Numbered from the stretch's first letter, positions 44,268-50,220 are shown. The stretch: DNA of 64,000 bases from Ferruginibacter sp. (GCA_025350645.1 JANXXM010000036.1:14699-78698); one strand, 5' to 3'. Notes: a model not told the origin generated them from the sequence alone. Numbers and translations are program-made.

Positions 44268-44338
44268 GAGTTTGTTTTATGCAAAGGAACAAAATAAAAG
44301 AATTGCGAATAAAAAAATTTTTACGCCGTTGTTATTAT

Positions 44339-44612
44339 TGCTTCGCTGTGTAAAATTCTTAATACAAGAAGGCGCAAAAGAAGGATGCAGCAAAAGATTT
44401 ATTTATTGCTCTGCTATTATCGCAACTTCGCTGCGTGAAACTATTTTAATTACACGCAAAGAAGCAAAGCAAAATAAGCACGCATAAGAAGAATTTTGTT
44501 TTGTTGTAATCGCTGCTTCGCTGTGTAAAATTCTTAATACAAGAAGGCGCAAAGGCAGCAAGCAGCACAAAGATTTTTTTGTTCCGTTGTTATCGTTGTT
44601 TCGTTTCGTGAA
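44339..44612. repeat. REP-like intergenic array, ~85-90 bp period, with a perfect 40-bp direct repeat
   Basis: TGCTTCGCTGTGTAAAATTCTTAATACAAGAAGGCGCAAA at 44339-44378 and 44514-44553; related CTTCGCTG.GTGAAA units at 44426 and ~44599. Confidence 0.8.
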
Positions 44613-44638: not shown

Positions 44639-45328
44639 ATGAACGAGAAATTAAAAGATGCATTGATAAGAAACCGGCCAACGTTTCATAAAGTAGTAAC
44701 ATTTGATGACAAAAGAGATTCATTACTGCCCTTTAATTTTACAGAAAGTAATGTAGAAATTACAGCTGCACTCGTTGCTGATACCAATCATTTTTCTGCA
44801 TGGGTAAATAAAAAATTAATTGATGCAGGGGCTACTTATGGTATAGGTGGCTACAACGAAAACCGCACTTTATACAAACGCAGTACATTATTTTCCGGCA
44901 TAGAAGAAAGAAGCCTGCATTTAGGTACAGATATATGGGCGCCTGCAGCAACAGCAGTATTTGCGCCACTTGGCGGTATGGTGCATAGCTTTGCCTACAA
45001 TAATAATTTTGGAGATTATGGTGCAACAATCATTTTGCAGCACCAGTTAGATACTGTTGCTTTTTATACTTTGTACGGGCATCTTTCTCTTGCAGATTTG
45101 GTAGATATGCGCAAAGGAAAATTTCTTACAAGAGGAGAAGTTATTGGACATTTAGGCAAGCCAGAAGAAAATGGTAACTGGCCGCCGCACCTGCATTTTC
45201 AGATAATAGAAGATATTAGTTTTAATGAGGGCAATTACCCGGGCGTATGCAGCCTGCAGGATGCAGAAAAATATCTGTATAATTCGCCAGACCCAGATTT
45301 TATATTAAAGATGAATTCTTTTATTTAA
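44639..45328 (+). CDS. M23 family metallopeptidase
   Basis: LHLGTDIW (HxGxD), DYG.TIILQH, YTLYGHL, PPHLHFQ (HxH). Confidence 0.88.
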   Translation: MNEKLKDALIRNRPTFHKVVTFDDKRDSLLPFNFTESNVEITAALVADTNHFSAWVNKKLIDAGATYGIGGYNENRTLYKRSTLFSGIEERSLHLGTDIWAPAATAVFAPLGGMVHSFAYNNNFGDYGATIILQHQLDTVAFYTLYGHLSLADLVDMRKGKFLTRGEVIGHLGKPEENGNWPPHLHFQIIEDISFNEGNYPGVCSLQDAEKYLYNSPDPDFILKMNSFI

Positions 45329-45606
45329 TGCATTGCGCCCATTCTAAAATTTGAAGTGCAGGTGGCAAAACCAATAAGCATTAATAAACCGCCACTTATA
45401 AAAAAGCCCTGCGCATATCTTTTATCTTTTGCAAACAATAAAATAAGGCCAACAAATAACTGCAGCAGGCCGCCAAAAAAACCTACACTTCCTATAAATA
45501 CAAAAAAATCTTCGCTGCTATGCCCACCATTTGCAACAGCGAGTAATGCGCCAAATAAAAAAACAACAGCAAAACTGTATAATATTATTTTGGGTATTAA
45601 TTTCAT
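45325..45606 (-). CDS. Small 3-TM membrane protein with a single C-terminal Cys (paralog B)
   Basis: 93 aa; ...GLILLFAKDKRYAQGFFISGGLLMLIGFATCTSNFRMGAMH; clear paralog of 45645-45920. Confidence 0.8.
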   Translation of the reverse strand: MKLIPKIILYSFAVVFLFGALLAVANGGHSSEDFFVFIGSVGFFGGLLQLFVGLILLFAKDKRYAQGFFISGGLLMLIGFATCTSNFRMGAMH

Positions 45607-45644
45607 TGTATAAATTTATTATTTACTTTTTATTTTTTAAGATA

Positions 45645-45920
45645 TTATATTTTAGTTGCGCTGCATACGGCAAAACCCAGCATTATCATTGTGCCTGCGC
45701 TTAATAAAAAACCCTGGGCATAACGTTTATCTTCTTTAAATAATAAAAATAATCCGATTATTAAATCTACTACTCCGCCAAAAATATTTACTAAGCCAAA
45801 TGCAATTGAAAGATTTTGATACGAAAATGATGAAGATCCGCTTATCGTAGATGAAACCATTAAACTAAAAAAAAGTGCAATTCCAATATTTATCAGTAAA
45901 ATTTTTACAGGTAGTTTCAT
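45645..45920 (-). CDS. Small 3-TM membrane protein with a single C-terminal Cys (paralog A)
   Basis: 91 aa; ...GLFLLFKEDKRYAQGFLLSAGTMIMLGFAVCSATKI. Confidence 0.8.
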   Translation of the reverse strand: MKLPVKILLINIGIALFFSLMVSSTISGSSSFSYQNLSIAFGLVNIFGGVVDLIIGLFLLFKEDKRYAQGFLLSAGTMIMLGFAVCSATKI

Positions 45921-46012
45921 GTGCTCATTTTATTATATTTTTCTTAGTCTGCAATTTGCCGAATTATTCCTTTTATTTTGTTTTAATGTAGCTCATTTGT
46001 AAGTACAAAAAT

Positions 46013-47419
46013 TTAAACTGGCACATGGCTTCTTTCTGCCTGCAGTACTTTTAAGTATTCTTCTTTATCATCCCTGTAAAATAAATTCATGGTTTCAAAA
46101 GGAATAATGCGCCCGTCCTTATGCACGATATGCACACAGCTTTTTTTAATAGACCTTACATCAAAATCGTACGCATCTATAAACCGCATAATAATAATGC
46201 GAAAAAGATTATCGTAACCCAGACCTGGCGCTTCAATTTGTGGTAAACAGCAAAGGAGTTGTTTCATATTTTCCTCTACCCTGTCTACCGAAATTCCTGT
46301 ACTAAAAATATCAATCATCTGTTCCTTTAACGCATCGTCCTGCTCGTACACAATGGTATTTTTGCTATTGTCTAAAAGCTGTACAGGATCTACATATCTC
46401 GTAAGCGGAAAAACTTTACCATTTACTTTTAATGCGTAACCCATTGCCAGCGCATCTGGGTTGCAGGGCACAGGAATAATATCATTTGGTTCAAAAATAT
46501 TGGTTTGCTCTAATATTTTTCTGCGTACATCGGTAAGCGTAATACGGTCCGTTGCGGGGTTAAAATTATCTGTACGTCCTGCTACCTGCGTGGGTTGAAA
46601 AGTAACCCCTCTTACACATTTTTGCTGTAAAGCAAATTCAATTATTTTTCCTATCTCCTCATCGTTTACTCCCTGCTGCAAGGTTACTACTAAAGTTGTG
46701 GCCAGGTTTAACGCATTCAAATGTTCCAGTGCTTTCATTCTTGTTGCCGTAAGATCTTTGCCCCGCAAGGCTTCTAGCGCATCGGGTTTAAATGAATCGA
46801 ACTGTAAATAAATTTCAAAATCGGGGGCATAAGTGGCAAGTTGCTTTGTAAATTCGAAGTCTTTAGCAATTCGTATTCCGTTTGTATTAAGCATTAAATG
46901 CTTTATCGGTTTTTTCTTTGCTATATCCATTATGGCAAAAAAATCCGGATGCACTGTTGGTTCGCCGCCGCTTATTTGCACCACATCTGGCGTGCCTTCA
47001 TTTGCCACAATAATATCCAGCATTTTTTCTACTTCTTCAACCGTTCTGTGCCTGCCGTAATGCGGGCTGCTCATGGCATAGCAGGTAGGGCATTGAAGAT
47101 TGCAGCGGTCTGTAATTTCTATAACAGTAAGGCAACTGTGCTGCTCATGATCTGCACATAAACCACAATCGTACGGGCAGCCATAATGTGTTTTTGTATT
47201 AAAATGCAATGGCGTTTCTGATGGCTTATTGTAATTGCGAATATTTTTATAATACTCAATATCTGTTGCTATTAACACTTTTTCAAACCCATGCTGCACG
47301 CAATTCTTAAGCATGTACACGTTGGCATTTTCAAAAACAATTTTAGCATCTACCCTGCGAAGGCAGGTGCTGCAAATACTAAGTGTGAAGTCGTAATAAG
47401 TGTATGGGCGTTCGGGCAT
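46013..47419 (-). CDS. Radical SAM enzyme of the Tes/GDGT-MAS (MJ0619, COG1964)-like family
   Basis: N-terminal CSTC...CVQH metal site, GCPYDCGLC..H...C auxiliary motif, CNLQCPTC radical SAM motif, SGGEPT, NTNG, YLQFD, C-terminal SCVH...GRIIPF. Confidence 0.85.
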   Translation of the reverse strand: MPERPYTYYDFTLSICSTCLRRVDAKIVFENANVYMLKNCVQHGFEKVLIATDIEYYKNIRNYNKPSETPLHFNTKTHYGCPYDCGLCADHEQHSCLTVIEITDRCNLQCPTCYAMSSPHYGRHRTVEEVEKMLDIIVANEGTPDVVQISGGEPTVHPDFFAIMDIAKKKPIKHLMLNTNGIRIAKDFEFTKQLATYAPDFEIYLQFDSFKPDALEALRGKDLTATRMKALEHLNALNLATTLVVTLQQGVNDEEIGKIIEFALQQKCVRGVTFQPTQVAGRTDNFNPATDRITLTDVRRKILEQTNIFEPNDIIPVPCNPDALAMGYALKVNGKVFPLTRYVDPVQLLDNSKNTIVYEQDDALKEQMIDIFSTGISVDRVEENMKQLLCCLPQIEAPGLGYDNLFRIIIMRFIDAYDFDVRSIKKSCVHIVHKDGRIIPFETMNLFYRDDKEEYLKVLQAERSHVPV

Positions 47420-47449
47420 GGTATTCGTTTTTATATTTGGATTTAGTTC

Positions 47450-47649
47450 TTATTCAAAATCTAATTTTGATAAACCAGACTGTCTACCTATCGAATTAAA
47501 AGTTGCTGTAGGCATTTCTTTCTCCCAGCAGGAATTATAACAGTCTATACCGGATTGCCCATTTTTCTTTATTAAACATGACTTCCATCTTGAGCCACAA
47601 AATATTTATCTTCTTTCTAAACGATATGTTGAGGTGTACTATTTTGCAT
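47450..47649 (-). pseudogene. Collapsed hicB-hicA toxin-antitoxin remnant
   Basis: MQNSTPQHIV*KEDKYFVAQ (HicB-like start, TAG where Trp is expected) fused in frame to DGSHV**...TVIIPAGR/KEMPTATFNSIGRQSGLSKLDFE* (HicA-like GSH motif and C-terminus, one frameshift). Confidence 0.65.
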
Positions 47650-47653
47650 AAAA

Positions 47654-48406
47654 TTATTTTCTCAAATATAATTTTTTTTTGCTAAAGTAAAGTGCTGCAT
47701 AATATCCAACCCCTGCTAAACAAGTAACCTGAATAGTAGATAATCCAACCTGCCAGGTATAATGCGGTTTTATAAAATCAATCAAAAAACGAAAACTGAT
47801 ATAAGCCATCATAAATATTTTGAATCGCATACCAGGTGGCAATATCCTGTGCTTTTCCACCTGCACAATACTTATCCAAAGCAATATCAAAAAAAGAATT
47901 TCGTACAGCGTTACGGGGTGCCGCAGGGTACCATCTCCCAAATTCATTCCTGTAAAAAACCCAGTAACAATACCGTAAGTTTCTTCATACACACCCATGC
48001 TAAAACAGCCTACTCTTCCTATTATTAACCCAAGTATCATAGGGTAAGTAAATAAATCGCCGCTGCTATTTTTTTCTTTAATAATTTTTTTGATCAGTTC
48101 TACGCCACACAATCCACCTAAAAAACCGCCAAGCACCGTTTTATTTTGATAGAAATACAATAATTTATTTGGTGCGGAAACCATCTCCGGAAAATTTTCT
48201 AATCCACCGATAAGCCTGCTTCCTATTATGGCACCAAATATGGCACCGATAATAATCCATGTTCTGTTTTCAGACTCAATAAGATCTTGTTGTTTTTTTC
48301 TTAAGAAAATAAAATAACGGAAAGCCACAAAAAAAGCAAGAAACTCAAAAATGCTATGCAGTGTAAAGTAATATTGGCCTGCAGATATAGTAATAGGAAA
48401 TGGCAT
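47654..48406 (-). CDS. Divergent prolipoprotein diacylglyceryl transferase (Lgt) family protein
   Basis: 7-TM; KTVLGGFLGG, IGRVGCF...YG, RHPVTLYE, YISFRFLIDFIK; ATG at 48406 (MPFPITI) preferred. Confidence 0.85.
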   Translation of the reverse strand: MPFPITISAGQYYFTLHSIFEFLAFFVAFRYFIFLRKKQQDLIESENRTWIIIGAIFGAIIGSRLIGGLENFPEMVSAPNKLLYFYQNKTVLGGFLGGLCGVELIKKIIKEKNSSGDLFTYPMILGLIIGRVGCFSMGVYEETYGIVTGFFTGMNLGDGTLRHPVTLYEILFLILLWISIVQVEKHRILPPGMRFKIFMMAYISFRFLIDFIKPHYTWQVGLSTIQVTCLAGVGYYAALYFSKKKLYLRK

Positions 48407-48413
48407 ACTTATC

Positions 48414-48421
48414 CAAATATA
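48414..48421 (-). promoter_or_regulatory. -7 element TATATTTG heading the lgt-like/radical SAM unit
   Basis: Exact TAnnTTTG match 7 nt upstream of ATG 48406. Confidence 0.55.
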
Positions 48422-48601: not shown

Positions 48602-49138
48602 ATGCATCAATTACTTAAATGCCTTGCAGCCACAATTATTGTTTGTTTTACCACAACTGCTTTTGCACAAAAAAAAACCGATACCGAATTTAGAAAGGGA
48701 TATATTTTACTGCTTAAAATAAATAACGCCGTTGTTACAAATTTTCACTCAGCACCAGATTTGTATGCCGGTGGGCTTGCACTTAACCCGCAGTTTGTAG
48801 TAGCAGAGCATGTACTACGGCTCGGTGCCAATGCAGGTTTCGTGTATACCAATAAAAAATTATCGGGCATATTTGGGCCTATGCTGGCACTTAAAATAAA
48901 AAACTTTGATCTTAAAAACCTGGCAGGGCTTGCAAATCTTCAACTCATTGCAGAGGCAAACTGGGGCACAGATAAACAACAAATGGCGGGTGGCGGGCTG
49001 GCACTGGAAGTGTTACAAAAAGCACAGCTCAGTTTTACAGTGCAGCGAGATTATAATTTAAACAGTTGGTGGCTGCAAACGCATATCGGTATAAAACTAA
49101 ATAAGAAGAAAAAAACAACCCCAATTTTTAATCAGTAA
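48602..49138 (+). CDS. Hypothetical exported protein (alternating beta-strand pattern, possible small outer-membrane barrel)
   Basis: Signal peptide ending AFA-Q; amphipathic strands. Confidence 0.7.
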   Translation: MHQLLKCLAATIIVCFTTTAFAQKKTDTEFRKGYILLLKINNAVVTNFHSAPDLYAGGLALNPQFVVAEHVLRLGANAGFVYTNKKLSGIFGPMLALKIKNFDLKNLAGLANLQLIAEANWGTDKQQMAGGGLALEVLQKAQLSFTVQRDYNLNSWWLQTHIGIKLNKKKKTTPIFNQ

Positions 49139-49182
49139 AGAAATAATTTGTTGCATCATTTTTATTTATAAAAAATTTATTT

Positions 49183-50220
49183 ATGAAAAAAGCATTGGTA
49201 ATAAGCGGCGGTGGCTCTAAAGGTGCATTTGCAGTAGGTGTAATAAAACAACTGGTGCAAAACTTTCCTATTGATTTTGATATGGTGGTGGGTACCAGCA
49301 CAGGCTCGTTAATAGCTCCACTGGCAGCACTCGGCAAAATTGATGATCTGCAAAAATTATATACTACCATTACCAACGATGATATAATTATTAAAGACAA
49401 CATTGGTAACCGGCTGGATGAAAATTCAATATTTGACGCCTCTCCTTTATTTGAAAAAATTTCGCAGATTTATACTGATGCTTTTTTTGATGAACTAAAT
49501 ACATCGGGCAAAGAAATTTATTTGAATACCGTGTGTTTGCAAACAGAAGAACTGGTGGTATTTACCAATGCGGTAAATCCTGTGCAATCAAAATTTTACA
49601 CTACTACAAAACTTACAAATGGCGATCATTTTAGAAAAGCTATACTCGCCTCTGCCTGCCAGCCTATTTTTATGAACCCGGTAAAAGTAAACCTGCATGT
49701 AGCTGGCGAAGCAAGACCAAATGATCAGTTTGTAGATGGTGGTGTAAGGGAGTATGCTGGCGTACAAGTAGCCATAGATGCAGATGCAAAGGAAATTTTT
49801 ACGATATTACTCTCTGCTAAAAATGGGGAGGTAAATAATACAGATTATACTACCATGTTCCCTATACTGGAGCAGACCATTGCCATTTTTACGACAGATG
49901 TTGGTAAGAACGATCTTATCATCCCTTTTCAATACAATGATGCATTAAAATATATAGATGCCGTAAAAAAGAAAATGAAAAGAGAAGGTCTTGCTATGGA
50001 TGATATCAACAGATATTTTACCATACAAGGCAAGGAAAGTCCGTTTGAAGATAAAGTACCTTTAAAAATTCATATTATACAGCCGGAAACAGCATTGGGC
50101 GGCGGTACTGGCGGGTTGGAATTTATACCTGCAGATATGAAAAAAATGCTGGCAAAAGGTGTGGCTGCTGCGGGGGATTTTGTGGCGTCATTAAAACCCG
50201 GGGAGGTAGACTGGGCCTAG
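49183..50220 (+). CDS. Patatin-like phospholipase
   Basis: GGGSKG oxyanion loop, GTSTG nucleophile, DGG catalytic Asp. Confidence 0.92.
   Translation: MKKALVISGGGSKGAFAVGVIKQLVQNFPIDFDMVVGTSTGSLIAPLAALGKIDDLQKLYTTITNDDIIIKDNIGNRLDENSIFDASPLFEKISQIYTDAFFDELNTSGKEIYLNTVCLQTEELVVFTNAVNPVQSKFYTTTKLTNGDHFRKAILASACQPIFMNPVKVNLHVAGEARPNDQFVDGGVREYAGVQVAIDADAKEIFTILLSAKNGEVNNTDYTTMFPILEQTIAIFTTDVGKNDLIIPFQYNDALKYIDAVKKKMKREGLAMDDINRYFTIQGKESPFEDKVPLKIHIIQPETALGGGTGGLEFIPADMKKMLAKGVAAAGDFVASLKPGEVDWA

Follow-up and report, generated by a model that had tools for sequence, protein, structure and literature searches.

A conserved bacterial module of an Lgt paralog, a Tes-like radical SAM enzyme and small cysteine-bearing proteins, with a possible role in making a lipid-linked protein

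The phosphatidylglycerol:prolipoprotein diacylglyceryl transferase Lgt (E. coli; PDB 5AZB/5AZC; PF01790, TIGR00544) catalyses the first step of the Lgt-LspA-Lnt lipoprotein pathway, which lacks a radical SAM enzyme; this step is the transfer of diacylglyceryl from phosphatidylglycerol (PG) to the Cys of a lipobox, [LVI][ASTVI][GAS]C. Its H103-G-G-L motif is the proposed site of the lipobox peptide and Y26 contacts PG, and both H103 and Y26 are essential in E. coli (Mao 2016, PMC4728403). The archaeal tetraether lipid synthase Tes, or GDGT-MAS (MJ0619; PDB 7TOL/7TOM; NF045702), is a radical SAM enzyme that couples the terminal carbons of two lipid tails, its C-terminal cluster carrying the lipid intermediate. 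The NCBIfam model TrsS (NF045646) describes a radical SAM (seleno)protein named in Haft & Tolstoy 2025 (mSystems). Bacteria also possess Mss, the membrane-spanning lipid synthase of Thermotoga and Thermoanaerobacter (Sahonero-Canavesi 2022), which couples fatty-acyl tails and so offers a functional analogy for a tail-coupling step, but belongs to a different radical SAM family, found in anaerobes, with no Lgt partner and no protein substrate (PMC13159169). In eukaryotes, CaaX-type processing places a lipid on a Cys a few residues from the C-terminus; it is an analogy only, as the enzymes are unrelated to those considered here, the chemistry is prenyl rather than glyceride, and the reaction takes place on the cytosolic side.

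We examined a 64,000-nucleotide stretch (hereafter the window) of a Ferruginibacter sp. genome (GCA_025350645.1 JANXXM010000036.1:14699-78698), in which a preliminary description had noted four co-oriented genes and proposed that they form a new lipidation system. The observation itself is confirmed: all four genes lie on the minus strand where they had been placed, in the order Lgt paralog, decayed hicBA remnant, radical SAM gene and two paralogous small proteins. No published description of the module was found in the papers that could be searched, among which the paper naming TrsS, the nearest NCBIfam model, was not included.

The Lgt paralog, LgtL (47654-48406, minus strand), begins with an ATG at 48406 that gives a protein of 250 amino acids, the length of its homologs. 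It matches PF01790 with E=1.6e-18 (67.6 bits) but scores only 43.2 bits on TIGR00544, far below the equivalog cut-off of 118.9. A separate, better-scoring housekeeping lgt lies on another contig of the genome (C87) and reaches 117.5 bits on PF01790. LgtL is predicted to adopt the seven-TM Lgt fold: its AF2 model has a pLDDT of 94.4 and a pTM of 0.89, the only significant Foldseek hit is 5AZB (E=3.7e-7, TM 0.58), and the family profile matches 5AZB with E=5.4e-15. The equivalents of E. coli R143, H196, Y235, R239, E243 and R246 are kept (here R131, H163, Y202, R206, D210 and K213). Across 137 LgtL sequences R131, R206 and Y202 are invariant and D/E210 is conserved; over the sets of 137 and 79 sequences examined, the essential Lgt arginines and the residues of the H-bond network are invariant in LgtL. 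In contrast, Y26 is replaced by an invariant His17, H103 of the HGGL motif aligns to Val/Leu (V-[VL]-G-G, Val in the window's protein) preceded by an invariant K89-T90, and N146, also required in E. coli, aligns to an invariant Cys134. The last change is compatible with Lgt function in Bacteroidota, since the housekeeping Lgt of this genome also carries GRIGC. The periplasmic head of LgtL is shorter as well. LgtL therefore looks like an active enzyme with a changed specificity, although activity is inferred from sequence alone and, with H103 and Y26 absent, is not guaranteed.

Between LgtL and the radical SAM gene lies the 234-bp remnant (47420-47653, minus strand) that the preliminary description had called a hicBA scar, correctly as it turns out. 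Three related loci (L043, L045 and L062) carry at the same spot an intact HicB-like gene plus HicA (PF07927, E=9e-17), and the window's gap aligns to both ends of that pair, with about 210 bp deleted and stop codons present; neither reading frame is intact. In most relatives the two enzyme genes are 2-14 bp apart or overlap. The sequence TATATTTG at 48414-48421 (minus strand), 8 nt upstream of the LgtL ATG, matches the Bacteroidota -7 promoter consensus TAnnTTTG. However, this motif is not enriched in the window (100 found against 120 expected), so that the site is only a candidate and transcription from one promoter, as had been claimed, is plausible but not shown. A second match at 47663-47670 precedes the scar. 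No terminator-like site lies between the genes.

The radical SAM gene (46013-47419, minus strand) encodes 468 amino acids and has no in-frame TGA. It matches PF04055 and PF23545, and GDGT-MAS (7TOL) over its full length with E=1.5e-65. It scores 280.9 bits on the NCBIfam Tes model against a cut-off of 450, and 328.1 bits over the full length on TrsS, the best-scoring NCBIfam model, against a cut-off of 490. The rubredoxin-like site (C16, C19, C40, H43), the N-terminal [4Fe-4S] site (C81, C85, C88, H91) and the radical SAM motif (C106, C110, C113) of the Tes family are all present. At the C-terminal cluster, whose GDGT-MAS Cys ligands were assigned by sequence position rather than read from the structure, column conservation over 85 representatives shows that the equivalents of Met439 and C456 are kept (M411, C428), while those of C438, C455 and C470 are Ile, Ser and Glu. 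New invariant Cys appear at 96, 319 and 390/391, of which C319 and C390/C391 could replace the missing ligands. The chemistry may therefore differ from C-C coupling. Unlike the archaeal enzyme, this one resides in a bacterium with ester lipids. Pfam detects only Radical_SAM, Zn_ribbon_HMPTM and Fer4_12 in it, with no SPASM, twitch or peptide-recognition domain, and the SPASM-family NCBIfam models match only the radical SAM core, at E=1e-9 to 1e-17.

The two small genes, small1 (45645-45920) and small2 (45325-45606), both on the minus strand, encode predicted three-helix membrane proteins of 91 and 93 amino acids that are 38-40% identical and match no Pfam or NCBIfam family. Each has exactly one Cys, near its C-terminus: small1 ends in KEDKRYAQ-GFLLSAGTMIMLGFAV-C-SATKI and small2 in AKDKRYAQ-GFFISGGLLMLIGFAT-C-TSNFRMGAMH. 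The AF2 model of small2 (pLDDT 74) has helices at 4-25, 31-58 and 62-90. The C-terminal His of small2 recurs in 53 of 168 family motifs (32%). The description of these proteins as single-Cys holds for the window's pair but not for the family, many members of which have two or more Cys with only one position invariant. That Cys is the only invariant column besides Met1 in 87 sequences.

The association of the two enzyme genes is conserved. In 80 loci fetched with the radical SAM protein alone, 77 of 78 assessable have the Lgt paralog directly upstream. Over both sets of loci LgtL lies upstream on the same strand in 148 of 155 assessable cases, but it must be noted that the second set was fetched with a fusion protein as query, which favours loci that hold both enzymes. 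Natural fusions of LGT, Zn-ribbon and radical SAM domains exist in the proteins P0122 (733 aa) and P0260 (671 aa), and four loci (L121, L122, L126 and L190) show open frames running from one domain into the other. The pair occurs in at least a dozen phyla, including Acidobacteriota (Terriglobales, Vicinamibacteria).

Small proteins with a common C-terminal layout follow the enzyme genes: a positive loop, an uncharged stretch of 18.2 +/- 2.4 residues, G-x-x-x-C and a tail of 3-14 residues. A motif ORF is found within 1.5 kb downstream in 124 of 153 loci, and 171 of 922 nearby ORFs carry the motif against 29 of 7879 control ORFs, a 50-fold enrichment. Because the motif filter required a K/R before the helix, the positive-loop statistic is partly built in. 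A relaxed scan finds further copies upstream of the pair, or between the two enzyme genes, in other phyla, whereas about ten loci from other phyla showed no Cys-motif ORF within the fetched flanks. In 121 genomes (120 genera) of the family, 19 carry the radical SAM gene and at least 17 of these have a Cys-motif ORF next to it. In one genome (G064) the small-protein hit lies on another contig, and in another (G112) both genes sit on short separate contigs. Only one radical-SAM-negative genome, 74% complete, gave a credible, if doubtful, small-protein hit. HMM hits, which reach E=5e-31 for small1 in the window's own genome and extend down to E=1e-14 in other genera, otherwise fall only beside the radical SAM gene. 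The small proteins behave as dedicated partners of the enzymes: copy number varies from 1 to 4 and the sequences diverge fast, features that fit substrates better than fixed subunits. Despite the resemblance of their layout to the n- and h-regions of a lipoprotein precursor, none of 168 motifs matches the canonical lipobox; the residue before Cys is V, T, I or L in 72% of them and G, A or S in only 20%. No other conserved partner was found among 149 neighbouring ORFs, no protease recurs there, and no CaaX protease or ICMT-like family was among their 25 most frequent families.

These results lead us to view the locus as a dedicated three-part membrane module. In this model the small proteins insert with their last helix running from the cytoplasm outward, preceded by a K/R-rich loop as in a lipoprotein signal peptide, which would place the conserved G-x-x-x-C at the outer face of the cytoplasmic membrane. 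LgtL, whose active site would face the same side, would transfer a glyceride-type lipid, most simply diacylglyceryl from a glycerophospholipid, onto that Cys as a thioether. The non-canonical acceptor motif fits the changes at the HGGL site and Y26. The Tes-like enzyme, which is fused to LgtL in some taxa and would be docked on its cytoplasmic C-terminus, would use 5'-deoxyadenosyl radicals and its auxiliary cluster to functionalise or couple unactivated acyl-tail carbons, either of the donor lipid or of the lipid-protein adduct. The product would be a protein-linked lipid that is macrocyclic, membrane-spanning or otherwise tail-modified. What the analysis demonstrates is the gene order, its conservation, the fusions, the co-occurrence, the fold and residue conservation, and the motif; membrane topology, donor, acceptor, order of steps, product and the catalytic activities themselves are inferred. 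We consider this reading about as likely as not. One difficulty is that the radical SAM enzyme is cytoplasmic while the Cys is predicted at the outer face, so that direct action on the Cys is unlikely and the model does not explain how lipid tails would reach the active site.

The interpretation given in the preliminary description is thus partly supported. Two conditions set there beforehand as able to refute it, lack of a conserved neighbourhood and absence of any other lgt in the genome, were examined and neither refuted the idea. Its proposal that the Lgt paralog lipidates the lone Cys and that the radical SAM enzyme cross-links or otherwise modifies the acyl tails remains inference. Its alternative of a cleaved lipopeptide is weakened by the absence of a canonical lipobox and by the presence of a single LspA in the genome.

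Other explanations can be entertained. The LgtL-radical SAM pair might make a rare free lipid, such as a macrocyclic or membrane-spanning diacid glycerolipid built from iso-branched tails, with LgtL only binding or handing over phospholipid and the small proteins acting as structural or regulatory subunits that occupy the peptide cleft. This would agree with the full-length homology to a lipid-tail coupling enzyme, with the proposal that bacterial Tes homologs make brGDGT-type lipids (Zeng 2022, PMC8941075), with the occurrence of the pair in Acidobacteriota, with the loci that show no small Cys protein and with the lack of any other conserved partner. However, published data show that bacterial Tes homologs do not track bulk membrane-spanning lipid production, being found in none of the diabolic-acid producers and in 3 of 14 iso-diabolic-acid Acidobacteria (PMC13159169). 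Moreover, the near-strict co-occurrence, variable copy number and single invariant Cys of the small proteins are not expected of a passive subunit, and LgtL keeps the catalytic arginines of a transferase. We regard this possibility as unlikely, though it is the strongest of the rivals.

Less likely still is a RiPP-like chemistry, in which the radical SAM enzyme would modify the small protein itself, for example on a cytoplasmic loop or before membrane insertion, after which LgtL would lipidate it and a protease release a short lipopeptide. Several fast-evolving, precursor-like genes do follow a radical SAM gene, and the tail after Cys is short and variable with a recurrent C-terminal His. On the other hand, the best matches of the enzyme are lipid enzymes, it lacks SPASM and RiPP-recognition domains in Pfam and NCBIfam, no residue outside the Cys is invariant that could serve as a second modification site, the motif does not fit LspA cleavage rules, and no protease recurs nearby. 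Finally, short hydrophobic ORFs arise easily in AT-rich DNA, so the small ORFs might be unrelated or non-coding and LgtL a spare housekeeping Lgt that happens to lie next to a radical SAM gene. This is already contradicted by the motif enrichment, the location of the HMM hits, the natural fusions, the arrangement conserved across phyla and the low equivalog score of LgtL beside a better lgt elsewhere, and appears very improbable.

A more specific version of the favoured model, possible but less likely than not, is that ribosomally made membrane peptides are S-lipidated on a Cys close to the C-terminus by a dedicated Lgt paralog, the acyl tails of that lipid then being carbon-carbon coupled by a Tes-like radical SAM enzyme bound to the same complex. 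The product would be a protein covalently tied to a macrocyclic or membrane-spanning lipid. If so, it would represent a new post-translational modification, and the first assigned role for the hundreds of bacterial Tes homologs.

Four co-oriented genes occupy positions 45325-48406 of the minus strand of the window. The first, lgtL (47654-48406), starts at an ATG at 48406 that gives a 250-aa product, the length of its homologs. It is followed by a 234-bp gap (47420-47653), the gene of a 468-aa radical SAM enzyme (46013-47419) and two small ORFs, small1 (45645-45920, 91 aa) and small2 (45325-45606, 93 aa). The observation made in the preliminary description thus holds at the level of the genes. 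A TATATTTG match to the Bacteroidota -7 box lies at 48414-48421, 8 nt before the ATG of lgtL. However, the motif is no more frequent in the window than chance allows (100 found, 120 expected), so that it is only a candidate promoter. No terminator-like site separates the genes. Names on homologs and loci place the organism in Chitinophagaceae, close to Ferruginibacter.

In most relatives, lgtL and the radical SAM gene are 2-14 bp apart or overlap. In contrast, three related loci (L043, L045 and L062) carry about 460 bp at this position, encoding a HicB-like protein and a HicA toxin (PF07927, E=9e-17). The gap in the window aligns to both ends of that insert, lacks about 210 bp of its middle and contains stops. 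The claim of the preliminary description that this gap is a hicBA scar is therefore correct. It is an incidental insertion and not part of the system.

The convergent M23-like gene and the patatin gene near the module are synteny within the family or genus only. On the plus strand, an M23-peptidase-domain protein with no signal peptide or TM segment (44639-45328) converges on small2 and overlaps it by 4 bp. It is a frequent neighbour within Chitinophagaceae but not in other phyla, which probably indicates synteny rather than function. Between this gene and that of a TonB-dependent receptor, the intergenic region at 44281-44612 contains two to three direct copies of a unit of about 175 bp (a 124-nt core at 76% identity, and a 44-nt core in three copies). 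Divergent from lgtL (48602-50220, plus strand) lie genes for a 178-aa protein with no family match and for a patatin-like phospholipase with weak similarity to CBASS and anti-phage lipases (E=1e-12 to 1e-13, far below cut-offs). Both are also next to lgtL in one same-genus relative (locus L037) only. A fourth conserved partner was sought among 149 ORFs lying within 1.5 kb of the module in 32 loci from outside the family. Only generic class-I methyltransferases recurred (4 members), and no ICMT, CaaX protease or peptidase was among the 25 most frequent families.

LgtL matches Pfam LGT (E=1.6e-18) but reaches only 43 bits on the Lgt equivalog model, whose cut-off is 119. The genome has another lgt, on contig C87 (13547-14509), that scores 117.5 bits on Pfam LGT (PF01790), against 67.6 for LgtL. 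A profile of 79 LgtL sequences matches E. coli Lgt (5AZB) at E=5.4e-15. The AF2 model of LgtL is confident (pLDDT 94.4, pTM 0.89), and its only significant Foldseek hit is 5AZB. Across 137 LgtL sequences from many phyla, the equivalents of E. coli R143, H196, Y235 and R239 are invariant or nearly so, while those of E243 and R246 are conservatively kept. Other positions with roles assigned in E. coli Lgt (PMC4728403) are changed. Y26, which H-bonds the sn-2 ester of bound phosphatidylglycerol, is an invariant His in LgtL, and H103 of the HGGL motif, the proposed lipobox-peptide site, is Val or Leu. N146 is an invariant Cys. We considered this last substitution as a special feature of the paralog but rejected it as unique, since the housekeeping Lgt of this genome also reads GRIGC where E. 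coli has GRLGN; a Cys at position 146 does not by itself argue against activity. The housekeeping Lgt is a long Bacteroidota-type form that also reads FYGG where E. coli has FHGG, and PTPFYE where E. coli has RHPSQLYE. At the RHP motif, the paralog is closer to the E. coli sequence than the housekeeping copy is. From its hydrophobic segments and charged loops, LgtL is inferred to have seven TM helices with the N-terminus outside and the C-terminus inside. This reading of the sequence agrees with the helices of the model and with the positively charged cytoplasmic face described for E. coli Lgt (PMC4728403).

The radical SAM enzyme aligns over its full length with GDGT-MAS (7TOL, E=1.5e-65). 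With the ligand numbering of Lloyd et al. (PMC9433317), three sites are kept: the rubredoxin-like site (C16, C19, C40, H43), the N-terminal cluster (C81, C85, C88, H91) and the radical SAM motif (C106, C110, C113). In the C-terminal cluster region, with the GDGT-MAS Cys ligands assigned by sequence position, only the equivalents of Met439 and C456 remain (M411, C428), whereas the positions of C438, C455 and C470 are Ile, Ser and Glu. The subfamily has its own conserved Cys at 96, 319 and 390/391. Representatives fall into two types: type A is that of the window, while type B has CC at 427/428 plus C442. A natural Lgt fusion exists in each type. The enzyme scores below the NCBIfam cut-offs for both Tes (281 against 450) and TrsS (328 against 490). 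The models adjacent in accession to TrsS, NF045645 (DVU_1557_fam, 60 positions) and NF045647 (alr0857_fam, 121 positions), are named after locus tags and may be curated partner proteins of TrsS-type systems. Neither matches the genome.

The two enzymes are linked both physically and genomically. A search of 1.8 billion cluster representatives returned P0122 (733 aa) and P0260 (671 aa), two single proteins with LGT, Zn-ribbon and radical SAM domains in that order. This order places the radical SAM domain on the C-terminus, predicted to be cytoplasmic, of the Lgt domain. Another representative, P0242 (688 aa), is a Tes-like radical SAM protein fused to DUF5714 at its C-terminus, a different fusion partner within the same superfamily. 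Retrieval with the radical SAM alignment alone gave more than 516 loci. The best 80 span many Chitinophagaceae genera and one Sphingobacteriaceae, and LgtL lies directly upstream in 77 of the 78 that can be assessed. Retrieval with the fusion protein gave at least 600 loci, which include Acidobacteriota, Verrucomicrobiota, Cyanobacteria, Melainabacteria, Planctomycetota, Gemmatimonadota, Alpha- and Gammaproteobacteria, Elusimicrobiota, Omnitrophota, Fibrobacteria and several Bacteroidota families. It must be noted that this second set is biased toward loci holding both genes, because the query contained both.

Downstream of the radical SAM gene, almost every locus has 1-4 small hydrophobic ORFs. 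Their products share one architecture: a K/R-rich loop, an uncharged stretch of 18.2 +/- 2.4 residues, the consensus L-L-[ILV]-G-[FL]-[SG]-[VTIL]-C-[SG], and a tail of 3-14 residues, which ends in His in 53 of 168 sequences. One-, two- and three-helix versions exist, the shortest being 38 aa. With a strict filter, 124 of 153 loci have such an ORF within 1.5 kb downstream on the same strand, and 171 of 922 nearby ORFs match the filter, against 29 of 7879 control ORFs. The strict filter missed true members that have a Glu in the helix (in loci L053, L055, L062 and L106); these were recovered by a relaxed scan, which also found further copies upstream of the pair or between the two enzyme genes. 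About ten loci from other phyla showed no Cys-motif ORF within the retrieved flanks. In five Planctomycetota loci (L147, L152, L165, L174 and L197), extra genes lie between lgtL and the radical SAM gene. They encode, among others, Cys-motif proteins with an N-terminal CxxC...CxxC zinc ribbon, predicted to be cytoplasmic, a conserved multi-TM protein (fused to LgtL in L147), and several paralogous proteins with a canonical L-x-G-C lipobox.

In an alignment of 87 small-protein sequences, the Cys is the only invariant column besides Met1. None of 168 sequences matches the canonical lipobox, and the residue before the Cys is G, A or S in only 20%. AF2 models small2 as three helices at moderate confidence. 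Searches of Pfam and NCBIfam gave nothing significant for the two proteins of the window or for ten from other phyla.

Of 121 genomes of the family (120 genera), 19 have the radical SAM gene. An HMM built from eight small proteins hits 16 genomes at E<=1e-4, and 15 of these are radical-SAM-positive. In 13 of the 15, the hit lies beside the radical SAM gene. In the genome designated G112, both genes sit on short separate contigs. In that designated G064, the radical SAM gene sits on contig C7 with no LgtL upstream in the 2 kb retrieved, while the small-protein homolog lies on contig C1 (loci L205 and L206); this may be a split module. The other four radical-SAM-positive genomes carry a motif ORF directly downstream, as read from the sequence. 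The one credible hit in a negative genome is in an assembly that is 74% complete. Since the genomes are related to one another, these counts do not amount to a formal statistical test, but the patchy distribution still implies repeated joint gain or loss.

The gene order, the natural fusions, the conserved residues and the co-occurrence come directly from the sequences and show a three-part module, with the small proteins as dedicated partners. That the two enzymes act as one membrane complex is our reading of the fusions and the linkage. The membrane topology, the activities of both enzymes, the lipid donor, the acceptor Cys and the nature of the product are inferred, in the absence of experimental evidence of any kind. 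The interpretation offered in the preliminary description is partly supported. In the view we favour, which we hold about as likely as not, LgtL would put a glyceride lipid on the outward-facing Cys, and the Tes-like enzyme on the cytoplasmic side would modify the hydrocarbon tails of the donor lipid or of the adduct. The altered HGGL and Y26 sites of LgtL fit a non-canonical acceptor and perhaps a non-canonical donor, and variable copy number with fast divergence around one fixed Cys fits substrates. On the other hand, the cytoplasmic enzyme and the outward-facing Cys would be separated by the membrane, and the C-terminal cluster site appears to be rewired, both of which weaken this model.

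The main alternative, which we regard as unlikely though not dismissed, assumes a lipid-only synthase with the small proteins as subunits. Published data count against a bulk-lipid role, because Tes homologs do not track producers of membrane-spanning lipids (PMC13159169). The preliminary description also considered that a lipopeptide is released by cleavage. This variant is less likely, given the residue before the Cys and the single LspA in the genome.

Full-text literature searches found no description of an Lgt/Tes-like pairing, although it cannot be excluded that the paper naming TrsS (Haft & Tolstoy 2025, mSystems 10:e01417-24) mentions a related neighbourhood. Bacterial homologs of the archaeal tetraether synthase have been known only from sequence searches, and a 2026 review still lists them as bioinformatic detections only. 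They have been discussed only as possible makers of brGDGT climate-proxy lipids (PMC8941075; 2026 review PMC13459092). This locus and its relatives show that one large clade of them is tied, often physically, to an Lgt paralog and to Cys-bearing mini-proteins, which points to a protein-linked product rather than a bulk membrane lipid. If confirmed, this would provide a defined three-gene cassette, with cultured carriers (candidates are Chitinophaga rupis DSM 21039, Niabella pedocola JCM 31011, Segetibacter aerophilus NBRC 106135 and Hymenobacter norwichensis DSM 15439), that is open to direct testing. It would also explain why Tes homologs do not track brGDGT or diabolic-acid production, and it would add a third kind of chemistry to bacterial protein lipidation.
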